Origin: an uncultured Candidatus Rokubacteria bacterium
GTDB taxonomy: Bacteria; Methylomirabilota; Methylomirabilia; Rokubacteriales; CSP1-6
NCBI GenBank assembly: GCA_963771355.1
Contig: CAVYTA010000006.1
Location: forward strand, 2,560,001 to 2,624,000
DNA: 64,000 nucleotides
Reading direction: 5' to 3'
Positions 10,146-43,482 of the stretch are shown here, piece after piece (the first letter of the stretch is position 1; every line of letters begins with the position of its first letter). A program made the translations under genes and the position numbers. The notes under the pieces were generated by a model. That model saw only the letters and a program-made list of their open reading frames with translations, did no database searches and was not told the DNA's origin.

Positions 10146-13100
10146 CTAGCGCCGCGCGCGGTCCTCGATCTCGAGGATCGCGGGCAGCGACGCGAATCCC
10201 GCCTGCAGGCCGGGATCTCGAGTCCGCGCGCGGAGATCAGATATGGTGGCCAAGGCCGCGCGATCCGCGGCCCGCGCCTCCTCCGCCCGGCCGCATGCCG
10301 CGTGGAGGCGCGCGAGGGCGGCATGGCTCTGCCAGATCAGCCGAGGCTGGCCGATGGCCTCCACGATGGCGAGCGCGCGACGGAGCGCATCCTCCGCCTC
10401 GCCCCAGGCGCGCCGTGCCACCGCGCTCTCGCCTTTGATCCGCCACGCCCAGCCCTCGTACTTGGGCGAGCTCCCCGGCGGCGCCGTCTCGAGGCTCTGC
10501 GCGGCGAAGCGCCGGGCGGCGTCGGCGTCATCCCGCAGCAGAGCGAGCTGGCCCAGGCTCGCGTAGCAGTGCGTCCCATAGCGCCACGTCATCCAGCGGG
10601 ACGGTGGCGGATGCTTGACGGTGTGGAGCGACTCGTCCAGGGCCTGGGCGGCGCTCGCGAGATCTCCCCGAGCCATGAAGGCGTCGGCCTCGTTGTTGCG
10701 GATGAAGGCCCGCCGCTCCGCCCCGCTGCCGTGGCCGGCGCGGGAGGAGCGTCCGGTGACCTCGTAGGACTGCTCGGACAGCGCGATGCCCGCGTCGAAG
10801 TCGCCGCAGTCGAGCCGGAGGAACCCGAGCGTATTGAGGAAGCGCGGGATCAACGCCTCGTCGCCGACTTTCTCGGCCAGGGCGAGGCCTTCGACCAGCG
10901 TGGCGAGCGCCCGATCGTACTCCCCCATCTCGTGGCAGGCCAGCCCCTGGTTCCATAGGCAGCGGATGAGGGGAATGACGAGGCGATGCTCCCGGGCGAG
11001 CCGGACGCCTTCTTCGCCGAACGCCAGACTCTCGCGATACTGCCCCTTCCAGGTGCGGTTGGCCGCCATGAGTTGCAGCACGAGCGCCTGGCGGTTTGCG
11101 TCATCCATGGTCCGCCCGATCTGCAGGGCGCGGGCGAGGTCGACTTGGGCCACCTCGAGCCGACCATTGAGCGCGTTCAGATAGCCTCGAGTGTAGAGTC
11201 CCCCTCCCAGCGGGCCCTGCGCCCCCACGGTCTCCGCGATCTCGATCGCGTTCCGCGCGCGCTCGTGAGCCGCGGGGAAGTCCTCGAGCCACTGGAACGC
11301 AATGGCCACTTGCACGAGCGCGTCCGCCTCCGCGGGACGATCCTGGACGCGCCGCGCGAGGGCGACGAGCTGCTCGGCCTCCTCGCGCGAGCGGACGAAC
11401 TCGCCGAGTCCGAACAAGAGGTCGGCTCGCGCGCGGTGGATGGCGATGAGGGTGGCCGCGGGCACCCGATCCGCCAGCCGGCCCGCCGCCACCAGGGCCT
11501 CGGCGTAGTAGGCCACCGCCTGGCGGAGGCCGAAGGCCTGGGTGGCTTTCTCGGCCGCCTTGACGAGATAGTCCAGCGCGCGCGGCCAGTCCTCGGCCTT
11601 CGAGAAATGGTGGGCGAGCATTTCGTAGTGCTCGGGCAGCCGGTCTGCGTACAGCTCCTCGATGGCCCGGCCCACGAGGGCATGCAGCTCCCGGCGCCGC
11701 TGGACGAGGAGGGAGTCGTAGGCCACGTCCTGGGTGAGCGCGTGCTTGAACATGTAGGCCAGCTCGGGATAGAGCCGGCGCTCGAAGATGAGCTCGAGCG
11801 CGGTGAGCTCCCGGAGGAAGTCGTCACTGCGCTCCCGGATCTCCGCGAGGCGCTCCACCAGACGCCGCGTGAACTCACGGCCGATCACCGCGGCGAGCTG
11901 GAGCGTTCGCTTGGGGGCCTCGGCGAGGCGGTCGATGCGGGCGGCGATCACGTCCTGGATCGAGCCCGGAACGGCCAGTGCGGTCAGGGGTTGCGTCAGA
12001 GCGAAGCGACCTTCCACGCGGCGGATCGCCCCGCTCTCCTCCAGCGACTTCACCAGCTCCTCGACGTAGAACGGGTTGCCCTCGGCCTTGGCGCCGATCA
12101 CCGACCGCAGCGCGTCGGGCAGAACGTCGGCGGCGAGGACAGCGGCGGCCATGCGCGCGCTGTCGTCCGCCGAGAGCGCGGCGGGCACCACCCGGGTAAA
12201 GTAGCTCCGCTCGCCGAAGGGATTCGCGTAGCCCGGCCGGTAGGTGAAAATGAGGAGGACCCGCCGGGCCGGGATGCTGTCCATCAACGTCGCCAGGAAC
12301 TGCTCACTGGCGGTGTCGATCCAGTGCAGGTCTTCGATCACGAGCACCTGCGGCCGGCGCTCGGCGGCGCGGACGAGCAACCGCCGTACCGCGTCGAAGG
12401 TCTCGTTGCGCCGCTGGCGCGGACTCATGGCTCGCACCTCCGCGTCGCCTGGGTCCACCGACAAGAGCGCGCGCAGATACGGCGTGATGGGCGCCGGGTC
12501 CTCGCCCGTCAGCGCCACGCCGCTCTCGATCTTCGCGCCGATGGCCGCCTCGTCATCCGTATCCTCGATGCCGAACCCGCGCCGCACCAGATCGATGAGG
12601 GGATGGAAAGTCATGGCGCCGCCGAAGGAAAGGCAATGCCCTTCCTGCCACGTCGCGTGGTCGCTCACCCGCCGCCTCAGCTCGAGGAGGAGCCGCGACT
12701 TCCCGATACCCGCGTCGCCGACGAGGAATACGGCCTGGCCCTGGCCGGCGCGAGCTCGCTCGAAGGCGTCGAGGAGCAAGCTCAGCTCGCGCTCCCGGCC
12801 GACGAACGGGGTGAGACCCCGCTCCGATTCGACCTCGAGCCGCGTGCGCGTCTCATGCTCGGCGATGATCTCCCACGCGCTCACCGGCTCGGCCTTGCCC
12901 TTGAGGTGGACCTCGCCGATTCGCCGGGTCTCGAAGTAGCCGTGGACCAGGCGGTGGGTGGCCTCGGAGATGGTTATCCGCCCCGGCTCTCCCGTCTGCT
13001 GGAGCCGCGCCGCCACATTGGTGGTGTCGCCCACCGCCGTATAGTCCATGCGGAGGTCGCCGCCGATGCTGCCCACCACCACCAGCCTGTATTGAGGCCT

Positions 13101-13636
13101 TGCCGGGCCCGGAACGTGATGCCGCGGGGAGCGAGCTCTTGCTGGAATCCCGCGAGGGCGCGCTCGATGCCCAGCGCGGCGCGCACCGCCCGGCGCGCGT
13201 GGTCCTCGTGCGCGATGGGCGCGCCGAACAGCGCCATGATGCCGTCGCCCAGGAACTGATTGACCGTACCCTCGTTCCGGTGCACCTCGGCGAGCATGAG
13301 CTCGAAGGCACGGCTCATGAGCCCGTGGACGTCCTCGGGATCCAGGCGCTCGGACAGCGACGTGAAGCCCGACACGTCCACGAACAGCACCGTCACCTGC
13401 TTGCGCTCGCCCTGGAGCGCGCTCGCGCTGGTGAGGATCTTCTCGGCGAGATGCTTGGGGGTATAGGCGCGAGGCGACACGGCTCCCTCGAGCGAGGCGC
13501 CGCACTGATGGCAGAAGCGATTGTCGGGCGGGTTGGGCGCCCGGCAGGCGGGGCAGCGCGTCTCGAGGGGCGCGCCGCACCCGCCGCAGAAGCGTACGCC
13601 CGCTGGATTATCCTGGGCGCAGCCCGGGCAAATCAA
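10146..13636 (-). CDS. Double zinc ribbon + class III nucleotide cyclase + AAA/STAND ATPase + TPR protein (frameshift near 13086)
   Basis: CPGC/CGGC/CPAC/CHQC ribbons; VTVLFVDVSGFT, FLGDGIMALFG, GLNTG, YTAVGDTTNVAARLQ; GDAGIGKS P-loop, IEDLHW, GNPFY, FKHALTQDVAY; helical repeat C-terminus. Split between ORFs 12974..13636 and 10146..13580. Confidence 0.9.
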
Positions 13637-18110: not shown

Positions 18111-18443
18111 GTGGTCAAGAGCCTCTCGCTGCTGACGCGCAAGGCGGGGATGACCCACGAGCAGTTCGTCAAGCACTGGGTGGAGGTGCACGCTCCCCTC
18201 GCCCATGCCGTGCCCGGCCTCCGGCGCTACGTGCAGTCCCATATCCTGGAGGAGCGCCGGCGGCCCGACATCCCCGCCACCGAGGTGGAGGTGGACGGCA
18301 TCGCCGAGCTCTGGTTCGACGACGCGGACGCCCTCGCGCGCGGCTTCGCCTCGGCGGAAGGGAAGGCGCTGCACGCCGACGGCGCGCTCTTCATCGGGCG
18401 GATCAAGAGCTACACGACGGAAGAGCGCGTCATCATCGGCTGA
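18111..18443 (+). CDS. EthD domain protein
   Basis: LLTRKAGMTHEQFVKHW..VHAPL, PGLRRYVQSH, DGIAELWFD. Confidence 0.85.
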   Translation: MVKSLSLLTRKAGMTHEQFVKHWVEVHAPLAHAVPGLRRYVQSHILEERRRPDIPATEVEVDGIAELWFDDADALARGFASAEGKALHADGALFIGRIKSYTTEERVIIG

Positions 18444-18453
18444 AGACTCTCCG

Positions 18454-19817
18454 CTAGGAGCGCAGCGGACCAGCCAGCGGGTGCAGCACGTCGATCGCCC
18501 AGCCCAGTTCCAGGCGCTCGCCCAGCCAGTCCGGGTGGGCCGTCGCGCGCCGATGCGAAGGCCCTCGGCGTCGTGACGCGCCCGGAGGATCGCGACAGAG
18601 TCTCCGGGGCCTGCAGCGGAGGGCGGCACCTCAGGGAGCGGGCGGCCGTCGGGTCGCCGGAACTGGAGCGTCCCGTCAGGCCCGCGCGCGACCTGGTAGC
18701 CCTCCTCGTGCACCGCGCGGTGATGCCGGCGGCAGAGCAGCGCGAGATTCGAGAGCTTCGTCGGGCCGCCCTGCGCCCAGTGGTGGAGATGATGGGCCTG
18801 AACGACCCGCACGCCGCACCCGGGAAAGCGGCAGGTCCGGTCTCGATGCAGGAGCGCGCGGCGCAAGGCGGGCGGAATGGTCCGGGTCCGCGCTCCGATC
18901 TCCACGACACGCCCCCCTTGGTCGTGGCGCACGACTACCCGGCTCGCGTCACACGCCAGGCGGCGGGACGTTCCCGCGGGAACGTGGGCGCCGTCCTCGA
19001 GAGCGGACTGGCCCGGCTGATCCGGATCGGCCAGCACCGCGGCGTCGACATGGACGACCACTTGGTAGCGCTCCCCCGGCGCGCCCGGATCGAGGGCGTG
19101 GTGCAGCGCCGACTCCGCCACCAGCGCTAGCGCGTCCGCCTGCTGCTGGGCCACCGTCGGACGCTTCTCCACCGGCTCTGCCGGCTCCGCCGCTCTACCG
19201 CGCCGGCGTGCGGTTCCCGCTGGGCCTTCTGATAGAGCACCTCGCGCCCCGCCTCCAGGGCACGCCGCAGGAGTGCTCCCGCCTCCGGCGTGAGCCGGCC
19301 CCGCACCACCACCATGCCGTCTTCGTCATCGTAGACCTGGAGCCCCCGGCCTTCGTGGTGCCGGGCGGCCTTCCGCGCCTCGGCCCGGCGATCCACTTGC
19401 CGCCAACTCTGCACGATGCGCTCGACATGCTCGGCCGTGCCCGCCCGCCCGACGGCAAGCAGCCGAGCTTCGGTCTCCGGCGTGGCGACGCGAGTGAGCG
19501 CACGGACCTTGGAATAGGACAGCTCCCCGCGGGCCAGGGCCTCGGTCAGCCGGGGCAGCGTCCCGAGGGCGCGCGCGACACGGACCCGCTCCCGAGCCGC
19601 GCCCTTGTCCAAGCCCTACCCGCCAGCCGAGCCACTCGGCGCAGGAGGGGAAGCCCGTGTTCCACCCGCCCCGCGCGTCGAACTCGCGGATCAGGGCCAG
19701 CAGGCGCGCGGTGGCGGCATCGAGGTGCGCGGACAGCTCCGCGATCTCGTCGCCGAGCCGCTCCAGCTCGGCGGTGGGTGGGGGCGTGGCCAGCACGGCG
19801 GATGTTTGGGATCCCAT
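18454..19817 (-). CDS. DUF222 + HNH endonuclease protein (13E12/Rv1128c-like); three frameshifts, intact versus pseudogene status unresolved
   Basis: Pieces: MGSQ..LLALIREFDARGGW..CAEWLGWRVGL / DKGAARERVRVARAL..RGELSYSKVRALTR..GRLTPEAGALL / QADAL..RRLACD..ALRRALLHRDRTCRFPGC..AHHLHHWAQGGPTKLSNLALLCRRHHRAVHE / PDWLGERLELGWAIDVL-stop 18454. GGGAGG RBS. Confidence 0.85.
18968..18985. repeat. Perfect 18-bp palindrome ACGTTCCCGCGGGAACGT inside the DUF222-HNH coding sequence
   Basis: Reverse complement checked by hand; flanking CGGCG (18961-65) and CGCCG (18989-93) can extend the stem. Confidence 0.95.
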
Positions 19818-20061
19818 GGCGAGTCCTCCCTCTGCTTGGACGACTCTACACCCTGGTTTTCGCGACTCCGGAACGCGCACGGAGCGAGCGATCAGTCGGC
19901 GTCAAATGATTTTCGGTCGCCACCCGGCTGAACGCGTTCCGATGGGCCCGGGCGGAGCGCTGAGCCCGCACGTCACGAAGGCCGTCGCCGCGCGGGGAAT
20001 TCACCCGCCAGGAGTGTCAAGCCGAAAAACTCGTCAGGACCGGAGAGGTGCTCGCCCGGGC

Positions 20062-41859: not shown

Positions 41860-43482
41860 GTGGACACGCCCTTCGACGCGTTCATGCACACGGCCGCGGC
41901 CGCGCCCGATCACGCCTTCCTTTGCGCGCCGCCCGCCGCCGGCCGCGCGTATCACCCGGATGGGATCGAGCTCACCTACGCCCAGGTGCGGGCGGAGGTG
42001 CTGCGCTTGCGCGCCGCCTATGCCGCCGCGGGCTATGGCCATGGCCATCGGGTGGCGCTCCTGCTCGAGAATCGGCCGGAGATGTTCATTCACTACCTCG
42101 CGCTCAACGCGCTCGGGTGCGGCATCGTGCCGGTCAATCCCGACTACCGCCACGACGAGGTGGCCTACCAGTTGGACCACTCGGAGGCGGATCTCGCGGT
42201 GGCCGTCTCCGAGCGGACGGCGGCGCTGGAGGCGGTGGCGCGTGAGCGCGCCCGGCCGTTACCGGTCATCGACGGCGGTGCCTGGCCGGCCGCGCTGCCC
42301 AAGGCGGGCCCGCTGCCGCGCGCGGGCGCGCCGCGCCTGGACACCGAGTGCGCGCTCCTCTACACGTCCGGCACCACCGGCCGGCCCAAGGGCTGCGTGC
42401 TCGACAATTTCTACATGCTCAATGCGGGCGCGTGGTACCGCGACCTCGGCGGCCGCCTCGCCCTCGCGCCCGGGCGCGAGCGCATCCTCAACCCCCTGCC
42501 GCTCTTTCACATGAATTGCCTGGGGGTGACAGGCACCTGCGCCATCCTCACCGCCAACTGTCTGATCCTGCCGGAGCGGTTCAGCCCGCGGCGCTGGTGG
42601 GCGGACGTGGTCGCGACCCGCGCCACCGCCGTCCACTATCTGGGCGTGATGCCGCCGCTACTCCTCAATCAGGCGCCCGTGCCCGAGGAGCGGCAGCATC
42701 AGGTCCGCTACGGTCTGGGCGCCGGCGTCGAGCCCCAGCTCCATGCCGCCTTCGAGGAGCGGTTCGGGTTTCCACTGGTCGAAGTCTGGGGCATGACCGA
42801 GACCGGCCGTATCTACGCGGACCGCGAAGAACCGCGCCAGATCGACACCCGCGCGTTCGGGCGCCCTCACGGCGGCTTCGAGGCTCGCGTGGTGGACGAC
42901 GCCGACCGCGAGGTCGCGCGCGGGACCGCGGGCGAATTGCTCGTGCGCTGGGGCGGTGCCGAGGGCCCGCGCCACGGCTTCTTCTCGGGCTATCTCAAGG
43001 ATGCGCGCGCGACGGAGGAGGCCTGGCGCGGCGGCTGGTTCCATACCGGCGATACGGTCCGACAGGCCGAGGACGGGATGCTCGTCTTCGTGGACCGGAA
43101 GAAGAACATCATCCGCCGCTCCGGGGAGAACGTCGCCGCCGCCGAGGTGGAAGCCGTGCTGCAGGCGCACGAGGCGGTGGCGCAGGTCGCGGTGCTGGCG
43201 GTGCCCGACGAGCTGCGCGAGGAGGAAGTCATGGCCTGCGTGGTGCCGATGGCGGACGCGGCCCCGGACGCGGCGCTGGCCGATCAGCTCATGGACTGGT
43301 GTCTCGGGCGGCTCGCCTACTTCAAGGCCCCGGGCTGGATCCTCTTCGTGGAGAGCCTGCCCACCACCGGCACGCAGAAAGTCCAGAAGACCCAGATCTT
43401 CCCGCGCGGGGAGGACCCGCGCCGCCGCGCCGGTGTCCTCGACCTCCGCACGCGGAAGAAGCGGACCTCATCCGGGCCGTAG
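41860..43482 (+). CDS. AMP-binding acyl-CoA ligase (CaiC-like)
   Basis: YTSGTTGRPKG, WGMTE, WFHTGD, DRKKNIIRRSGEN, TGTQK. Confidence 0.9.
   Translation: MDTPFDAFMHTAAAAPDHAFLCAPPAAGRAYHPDGIELTYAQVRAEVLRLRAAYAAAGYGHGHRVALLLENRPEMFIHYLALNALGCGIVPVNPDYRHDEVAYQLDHSEADLAVAVSERTAALEAVARERARPLPVIDGGAWPAALPKAGPLPRAGAPRLDTECALLYTSGTTGRPKGCVLDNFYMLNAGAWYRDLGGRLALAPGRERILNPLPLFHMNCLGVTGTCAILTANCLILPERFSPRRWWADVVATRATAVHYLGVMPPLLLNQAPVPEERQHQVRYGLGAGVEPQLHAAFEERFGFPLVEVWGMTETGRIYADREEPRQIDTRAFGRPHGGFEARVVDDADREVARGTAGELLVRWGGAEGPRHGFFSGYLKDARATEEAWRGGWFHTGDTVRQAEDGMLVFVDRKKNIIRRSGENVAAAEVEAVLQAHEAVAQVAVLAVPDELREEEVMACVVPMADAAPDAALADQLMDWCLGRLAYFKAPGWILFVESLPTTGTQKVQKTQIFPRGEDPRRRAGVLDLRTRKKRTSSGP

Follow-up and report, generated by a model that had tools for sequence, protein, structure and literature searches.

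Genes of the REP13E12/13E12 group encode a DUF222 domain (PF02720), usually together with an HNH domain (PF01844), and fall into 15,939 clusters at 50% identity among matches with E values up to 1e-10. In M. tuberculosis, members of the group have been reported as insertion elements under LexA control (PMC3381160) and as the breakpoints of inversions (PMC13157036), and the available portions of these two accounts give no DNA-binding fold, cognate site, or mechanism. Within the openly accessible main texts of the literature, nothing was found on the fold, the site, or the covariation of DUF222-HNH proteins, and searches with three of the site sequences discussed below likewise found nothing. 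Free-standing HNH homing endonucleases provide a further point of comparison, as selfish genes in which a DNA-binding module is joined to an HNH domain; such enzymes cut the empty allele, while their own allele is without an intact site.

The other systems of interest are the site-specific DNA-binding proteins of the ParB and Noc type. Among the features given in the available parts of the sources are the CBM2 motif G-H-A-R (PMC3597684), the link between ParB position 201 and base pair 6, and the contribution to the interface of two helices that follow the helix-turn-helix (HTH) (both PMC7383237). Here, a stretch of 64,000 nucleotides from an uncultured Candidatus Rokubacteria bacterium (the window) was analyzed, in which a multi-copy DUF222-HNH element keeps a parS-like 16-bp palindrome inside its own gene (Table 1).

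Table 1. Positions in the window of the element, its parts, and its neighbors
Feature	Position	Strand	Remarks
EthD-family neighbor gene	18111-18443	plus	
Whole insert, ~1.6 kb	18444-20061	none	between convergent EthD- and TauD-family genes
DUF222-HNH gene, frameshifted	18454-19817	minus	breaks at ~19617, ~19200, and ~18544
HNH nuclease domain	18705-18824	minus	Cys/His/Asn residues conserved
Conserved 16-bp palindrome CGTTCCCGCGGGAACG (family core GTTYCMGCKGRAAC)	18969-18984		reads V-P-A-G-T in frame; probably bound by the protein of the element itself
ParB/Noc/KorB-type DNA-binding domain (predicted)	19391-19736	minus	~residues 28-142 of P0001; interrupted by the +1 frameshift
A128 codon	19433-19435	minus	first residue of the helix matched to ParB S-V-R-D-T-E-R; T or V at this codon accompanies A6:T9
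S102-K-V-R105	19502-19513	minus	aligned to ParB G201-H-A-R204 (CBM2 motif)
TAGAGT, -10-like box	19843-19848	minus	followed by ribosome-binding site 19823-19829
Spacer, 166 nt	19849-20014	minus	length conserved (165-168), sequence poorly so
TTGACA, -35-like, invariant	20015-20020	minus	near left edge of inter-copy similarity
TauD-family neighbor gene	ends 20062	minus	

The gene, its copies, and its insertion site

By its domain matches, the window gene belongs to the DUF222/13E12-HNH family, with DUF222 scoring 40.7 and 38.6 bits against a Pfam cut-off of 24.4 and the C-terminal HNH domain 30.7 bits against 21.4. A Pfam search of the protein returned these two domains and nothing further, with no match to an HUH or RuvC family, and the middle domain (residues 155-305) matched only unnamed atlas clusters (0.90-0.91). 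The HNH residues from C323 to H364 are each retained in 129-136 of the 144 aligned rows, 5-9 of the rows being gaps. The genome carries four dispersed copies, including an intact paralogue of 448 residues (P0001; G000:C6:298384-299727), relative to which the window gene has indels of +1 (~19617), +17 (~19200), and -1 (~18544). Elsewhere in the window a gene on the minus strand (10146-13636), by eye adenylate-cyclase-like or an ATPase, is also split over two frames, so the assembly may hold indel errors, which bears on whether the frameshifts of the element are real. Gene matches occur in 34 of 61 related genomes, where several full-length copies can be present and where the distribution is patchy and many copies are broken.

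The EthD- and TauD-family genes abut one another in two congeners that lack the element (L198 and L200), and in two other congeners this position is occupied by the element. The interval that follows the TauD-family gene is a variable spot (18444-20061 in the window), holding different inserts in different congeners (L197, L199, and L201). Neither empty junction contains such a palindrome. Since the site is intact within the gene, a homing endonuclease was rejected as an explanation, on the assumption that the palindrome is the recognized site.

Similarity between copies sets in immediately ahead of TTGACA and tapers off past the final H-P codons. Terminal repeats, a target duplication, and exact ends were not seen among the copies, and the available empty sites have diverged; a DDE, HUH, serine, or tyrosine enzyme of the classical insertion sequences was not seen either. 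No very recent copies were found, the closest at different places being ~92% alike. From the lack of terminal repeats, target duplication, exact ends, and very recent copies it follows that mobility and its mechanism are what we infer. Targeting of tRNA genes was considered and dropped, as the calls made by ARAGORN under relaxed settings were scattered and shared no position. At one locus (L176) a sequence that by eye resembles the 5' half of a tRNA-Ser, encoded on the opposite strand, lies directly next to the 3' end of the gene. The pattern matched 21 times in viral contigs, and none of these matches was homologous.

The palindrome and its distribution

The preliminary description drew attention to ACGTTCCCGCGGGAACGT at 18968-18985, read on the minus strand as H-V-P-A-G-T, as the longest perfect palindrome of the window. 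Its position and reading were confirmed, but for length it ties with CTCGCGCCCGGGCGCGAG at 42463-42480, also of 18 bp. The latter is almost entirely G/C and likely arose by chance. The 5.53-Mb genome contains 139 perfect palindromes of at least 18 bp, the longest of which spans 36 bp (G000:C7:179656-179691), and 71 of its 83 windows of 64 kb have one or more of at least 18 bp; length is thus at chance level and was ruled out as evidence. The conserved unit spans 16 bp and not the 18 bp first proposed: among 130 loci, the first outer pair beyond the palindrome core is retained in 121, where 108.3 would be expected, and the second in 61, where 58.7 would be expected.

A genome-wide count of GTTYCCGCGGRAAC found three occurrences, all three inside DUF222-HNH copies and one of them in the V-S-A-E-T form. 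The decayed fourth copy has a shorter symmetric palindrome (CACGTTCCGCGGAACGTG), which was set aside because two homopolymer errors would yield the same sequence. The alternative peptide V-S-A-E-T encoded by GTTTCCGCGGAAAC, suggested in the preliminary description, does exist, in a paralogue of the same genome (C6:542669), and among 120 close proteins the peptide at the site is VPAGT in 51, VSAET in 53, VPAET in 8, VSAGT in none, and another in 8.

Across the 61 genomes the motif tracks the gene, with 115 matches to the motif against 15 to a control; in the 27 genomes where the gene has no match, the corresponding counts are 3 and 6 (hand tallies). The gene and motif tallies for the 61 genomes include two unpublished genomes (G030 and G016; loci L009 and L029), and no conclusion rests on these alone. 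This distribution bears on the idea that the protein and its site serve the host, through defense against parS-like DNA or chromosome organization during DNA damage, with the intragenic position being incidental. Conservation of the HNH residues and the LexA control of 13E12 genes in M. tuberculosis, as given in the available part of PMC3381160, would suit such a role. Because the motif follows the gene, the gene is patchily distributed, and many copies are broken, we regard a host function as improbable.

Conservation at the DNA level

Loci came from two sources, a protein search of relatives and a pattern at the peptide level (120 loci). This pattern leaves pairs 3/12, 4/11, and 6/9 free and fixes the other four, so that those four carry no evidence in the pattern-collected loci. 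A tree could be built from the 144 of 150 sites with sufficient residues; one duplicate was removed from it, and its first split separates 124 ingroup loci (Rokubacteria, Acidobacteria, Gemmatimonadota, Gammaproteobacteria, and myxobacteria) from 19 outgroup loci (Actinobacteria, Chloroflexi, Dormibacter, and one other). The palindrome is conserved in homologues: the 14-mer is perfect in 80 of the 124 ingroup loci, with one mismatch in 40 and two mismatches in 4. No perfect 14-mer occurs among the 19 outgroup loci, which have similar peptides.

Both members of pair 6/9 are synonymous third positions; this pair is complementary in 111 of the 124 ingroup loci where independence predicts 70.6, and ranks first among 386 such neighboring pairs in the gene; pairs 4/11 and 3/12 are complementary in 107 (87.5 expected) and 112 (95.1 expected). 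On the tree, all 20 branches with a double change at pair 6/9 stay complementary (14 to A:T, 3 to G:C, and 3 to T:A), alongside 12 single changes. It should be noted that gene conversion between copies may inflate such counts of independent change. A held-out metagenome sample was chosen solely for sites with non-C6 and non-G9, and 5 of its 120 sites were dropped for want of homology; of the 115 homologous sites, 108 are complementary, against 53.6 expected from a hand count of the marginals. The suggestion that compensatory changes maintain the palindrome and not the peptide is borne out by this covariation in both samples.

Conservation extends beyond symmetry. In the ingroup, the valine codon GTT is used at the site in 108 of 123 cases and in 209 of 3251 elsewhere, GAA in 92 of 109 cases and in 604 of 2962 elsewhere, and when 225 codon columns are ranked by A/T at the third position, the two codons of the site come first and second. 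Retention of these rare codons indicates that both sequence and symmetry are conserved, and since C:G at the same positions would pair more strongly, symmetry by itself does not account for them. Palindromes as long as this one are common in the genome, which could make the site a by-product of the peptide and GC-rich codon use. That explanation, to which we attach next to no weight, is refuted by the ingroup and the held-out sample: the outgroup has the same peptides and no perfect palindrome (0 of 19), synonymous positions covary, rare codons are fixed, and the trees show no dominance of one recent lineage.

A predicted ParB-type DNA-binding domain

The N-terminus had been compared by eye with the HTH region of ParB, and fold and profile searches back that likeness. 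The predicted model of P0001 has a mean pLDDT of 89.1. Foldseek with this model gave no match at an E value of 0.001 or better, with ParB and Noc among its top rows, and realignment of residues 28-141 to Noc gave Z 8.2 and rmsd 2.6 over 101 residues. With the domain folded alone, ParB, Spo0J, and two KorB entries took the first four ranks among 48,161 chains (Z 7.9-6.1; next 5.2), the best of them aligning over 104 residues with Z 7.9 and rmsd 4.6. Scores of Z 6-8 lie where the tool warns of a common helical arrangement, and we take them as moderate for helical domains. The top two matches of a sequence profile search are ParB (best E 0.019), and against the host ParB by itself the profile gave a weak result (probability 0.9%, E 0.064).

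Taken as structure predictions, these results support a DNA-binding fold of the ParB/Noc type, composed of an HTH and a CBM2-type motif, for the N-terminal domain. R105, in the CBM2 equivalent, is retained in 142 of 144 rows, and residue 128 would start the second helix after the HTH. A CTPase domain is absent: the match spans just ParB residues ~120-230, only ~27 residues precede it, and Pfam assigns DUF222 and HNH. Without the CTPase domain of ParB, the protein is not a ParB.

Covariation between protein and site

In a scan of ~400 protein columns against pair 6/9, residue 128 came first. Threonine occurs there in 10 of 92 loci, all of them A6:T9 and at ~six separate places in the tree, and in 0 of 78 non-A6 loci; four A6 loci are without T128. 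The window copy pairs A128 with a C6:G9 site. In the held-out sample, residue 128 is T or V in 15 of the 29 loci with A6:T9 and in none of the 24 without it. The prediction set beforehand, that held-out A6:T9 loci would mostly have T128, was half met (12 T, 3 V, and 14 A among the 29). Two held-out rows (L241 and L277) are near copies of discovery rows, and the remaining held-out loci lacked the domain or were duplicates. Independent pairs on a 144-locus tree built without these columns agreed in direction in 8.3 cases and ran opposite in 0, of 10 (median p 0.008).

When 858 column states were ranked against A6:T9, residues 128, 102, and again 128 took ranks one to three. S102 is present in 40 of 42 A6:T9 loci and in 24 of 64 C6:G9 loci; its independent-pair test is weaker (median p 0.03, ranging up to 0.69). 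Residue 102 aligns with ParB G201, the position tied to base pair 6 in the available part of PMC7383237. Self-recognition, as put forward in the preliminary description, thereby gains comparative support from residue-base covariation at residues 102 and 128, and the protein is likely to bind its own site, presumably as a dimer. Conversely, T6:A9 (11 changes on the tree) and G6:C9 (5 changes) have no protein covariate that could be found, which suggests some symmetric copying of mutations and is at odds with a model of readout alone.

Formation of a hairpin or cruciform by single-stranded DNA or RNA, or symmetry produced by template-switch repair, with no sequence-specific reading by the N-terminus, could draw on these same T6:A9 and G6:C9 sites, on the occurrence of all four complementary pairs at 6/9, and on the tolerance of the two central bases for mismatches. 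It is disfavored, and we consider it quite unlikely, given that pairing at 6/9 would leave a loop of 2 nt, that A/T pairs are kept despite strong GC bias, that the arms do not extend past 16 bp, and that double transversions to A6:T9 (14 branches) outnumber double transitions (3). It would also leave unexplained the covariation with residues 102 and 128, which are encoded 450-540 nt away.

Recruitment of the host ParB, with the site acting as a decoy parS, had also been proposed. The site has the same length and the same GTTYC...GRAAC arms as the host parS, and one variant (L190) is a single base from parS. Against this, the commonest forms of the site have C6 and a GC center, the covariation is with the element's own protein, and the host ParB has A6-type residues (canonical R173/T179/G201), with two canonical parS sites beside parAB on contig C3. 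Such recruitment is therefore very improbable.

Extra sites, leader, and regulation

Extra copies of the palindrome are present in 42 of 130 ingroup loci, amounting to 52 in 367 kb, compared with 15 matches in the 5.53-Mb genome. They lie mostly in linkers or after the gene, and in three loci also upstream; near the gene, 43 of 48 are in frame, mostly in the variable linker. Of the 16 extra copies that accompany an A6:T9 main site, 12 are themselves A6:T9, as are 0 of the 25 that accompany a C6:G9 main site. Among 27 extra copies with a non-modal main site, just 7 are identical to it. The window copy has no extra site. In three loci (L262, L284, and L132) palindrome copies bracket the gene on both sides, and the Pseudonocardia copy among them (L132) has the shorter GCGTTCCGCGGAACGC on both sides and no intragenic site.

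TTGACA and a TAGAGT-type box are separated by 165-168 nt in 60 of 65 leaders that had been preselected for TTGAC, and likewise in 27 of 28 from a held-out set without such preselection. Removal of ~150 nt of the leader would leave a consensus promoter. The arrangement is not a promoter type of the host, as genome-wide spacing peaks at 17 and 18, with six hits at 164-169, two of which are these elements. The joined promoter, with the spacer removed, had 0 matches in metagenome contigs, in a weak search whose pattern fits, in its right part, 10 of 89 leaders; nor was a joined leader found in the contigs (as distinct from raw reads) of seven public runs. An RNA-associated HNH system of the IscB or HEARO kind was rejected, since 44 leaders gave 0 consensus pairs on the sense strand and no Rfam match at the gathering score.

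Comparison with the DNA upstream of recA and lexA revealed no recognizable LexA-type box in the leader of the window copy. Upstream of several distant homologues (L078, L083, L104, L108, L112, and L119; L120 and L129; L063, L070, L076, and L106) there are, by eye, what we take to be the LexA-type boxes of their host groups, presumably of the patterns CTGT-N8-ACAG, GAAC-N4-GTTC, or GAAC-N7-GAAC-like. GTATC stands shortly before TTGAC in the recA promoter (G000:C7, L336) and in eight leaders (L018, L019, L021, L025, L055, L059, L097, and L100), and in the first three of these it forms a GTATC-N6-GATAC palindrome that is possibly the site of a host regulator.

These observations bear on an autoregulatory operator, in which binding of the protein, as a roadblock or through a loop with the leader, would limit a toxic nuclease and have no role in movement. 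All of the evidence for binding applies equally to an operator, and the fixed-length leader with its A/T tracts could be the other end of a loop. However, the extra sites lie mainly in linkers or downstream and not at the promoter, the leader half-site TTTCCGC does not covary with the palindrome, and for the distant copies with host LexA-type boxes (identified by eye) repression would already be available. An operator without a part in movement is thus unlikely, if still a serious competitor.

Proposed mechanism and significance

The reading that we prefer, to which as a whole we assign a probability of roughly 0.55, is that of a selfish element whose protein would bind its own gene as a dimer and nick nearby to spread. 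The dimer would bind the palindrome through the predicted ParB-type domain, and the HNH domain would nick nearby DNA and start copying of the element. The site would serve as a cis-acting self-recognition mark by which each lineage may mobilize its own copies, and the spread would probably occur through nick-initiated, recombination-dependent copying during DNA damage. Provided that the protein binds, the site is probably such a mark for mobilization rather than a simple repressor operator, because the sites gather in the gene body and flanks, lineages match their own site, and the behavior of the element is that of a dispersed repeat.

A bolder version is offered tentatively, and we consider it doubtful in its entirety: DUF222-HNH genes would represent an undescribed selfish class that combines a ParB DNA-binding domain with an HNH nickase, each lineage reading its own parS-like word by a simple residue-base code to mobilize itself. 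In this clade, a split promoter, with -35 and -10 boxes 150 bp too far apart, would be switched on by looping or removal of the spacer.

The DUF222/13E12 genes are very numerous and have no known mechanism in the literature consulted, and the predicted domain, the 16-bp site, and the two predicted specificity residues make the family testable. The data set also provides a natural series of repeated protein-DNA co-evolution inside one gene, at the very base pair by which ParB is distinguished from Noc. Should the proposed reading hold, ParB-derived DNA-binding domains would extend from segregation and repression to selfish nucleases.

Comparison with known systems

The element shares with REP13E12/13E12 both domains and the dispersed, multi-copy state. 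Within the broader family, the in-frame palindrome is a property of the clade that extends from Rokubacteria to myxobacteria, and the sampled genes of actinobacteria, Chloroflexi, and Dormibacter are without it at that position. Compared with homing endonucleases, the site of the element is intact inside the gene and its copies occur at unrelated loci. RAYT-REP and IS200/IS605 resemble the element in that short palindromes are tied to a mobile nuclease gene, and its HNH domain resembles that of IscB; the element differs from these systems and from IscB/HEARO in that its palindrome is read in frame and it has no HUH or RuvC match.

The likeness to ParB-parS, Noc-NBS, and KorB-OB is seen in the predicted HTH, the CBM2-type helix, and the conserved arginine. 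With ParB-parS in particular it extends to a 16-bp palindrome with parS arms, in which base pair 6 is tied to the equivalent of G201, going by the available parts of PMC7383237 and PMC3597684. Unlike ParB, Noc, and KorB, the element is without a CTPase domain and is fused to an HNH domain, and unlike ParABS it has no neighboring parA, its neighbors being EthD- and TauD-family genes. Finally, the center of its site is MGCK rather than the ACGT of parS, and the site lies within a dispersed, multi-copy gene.
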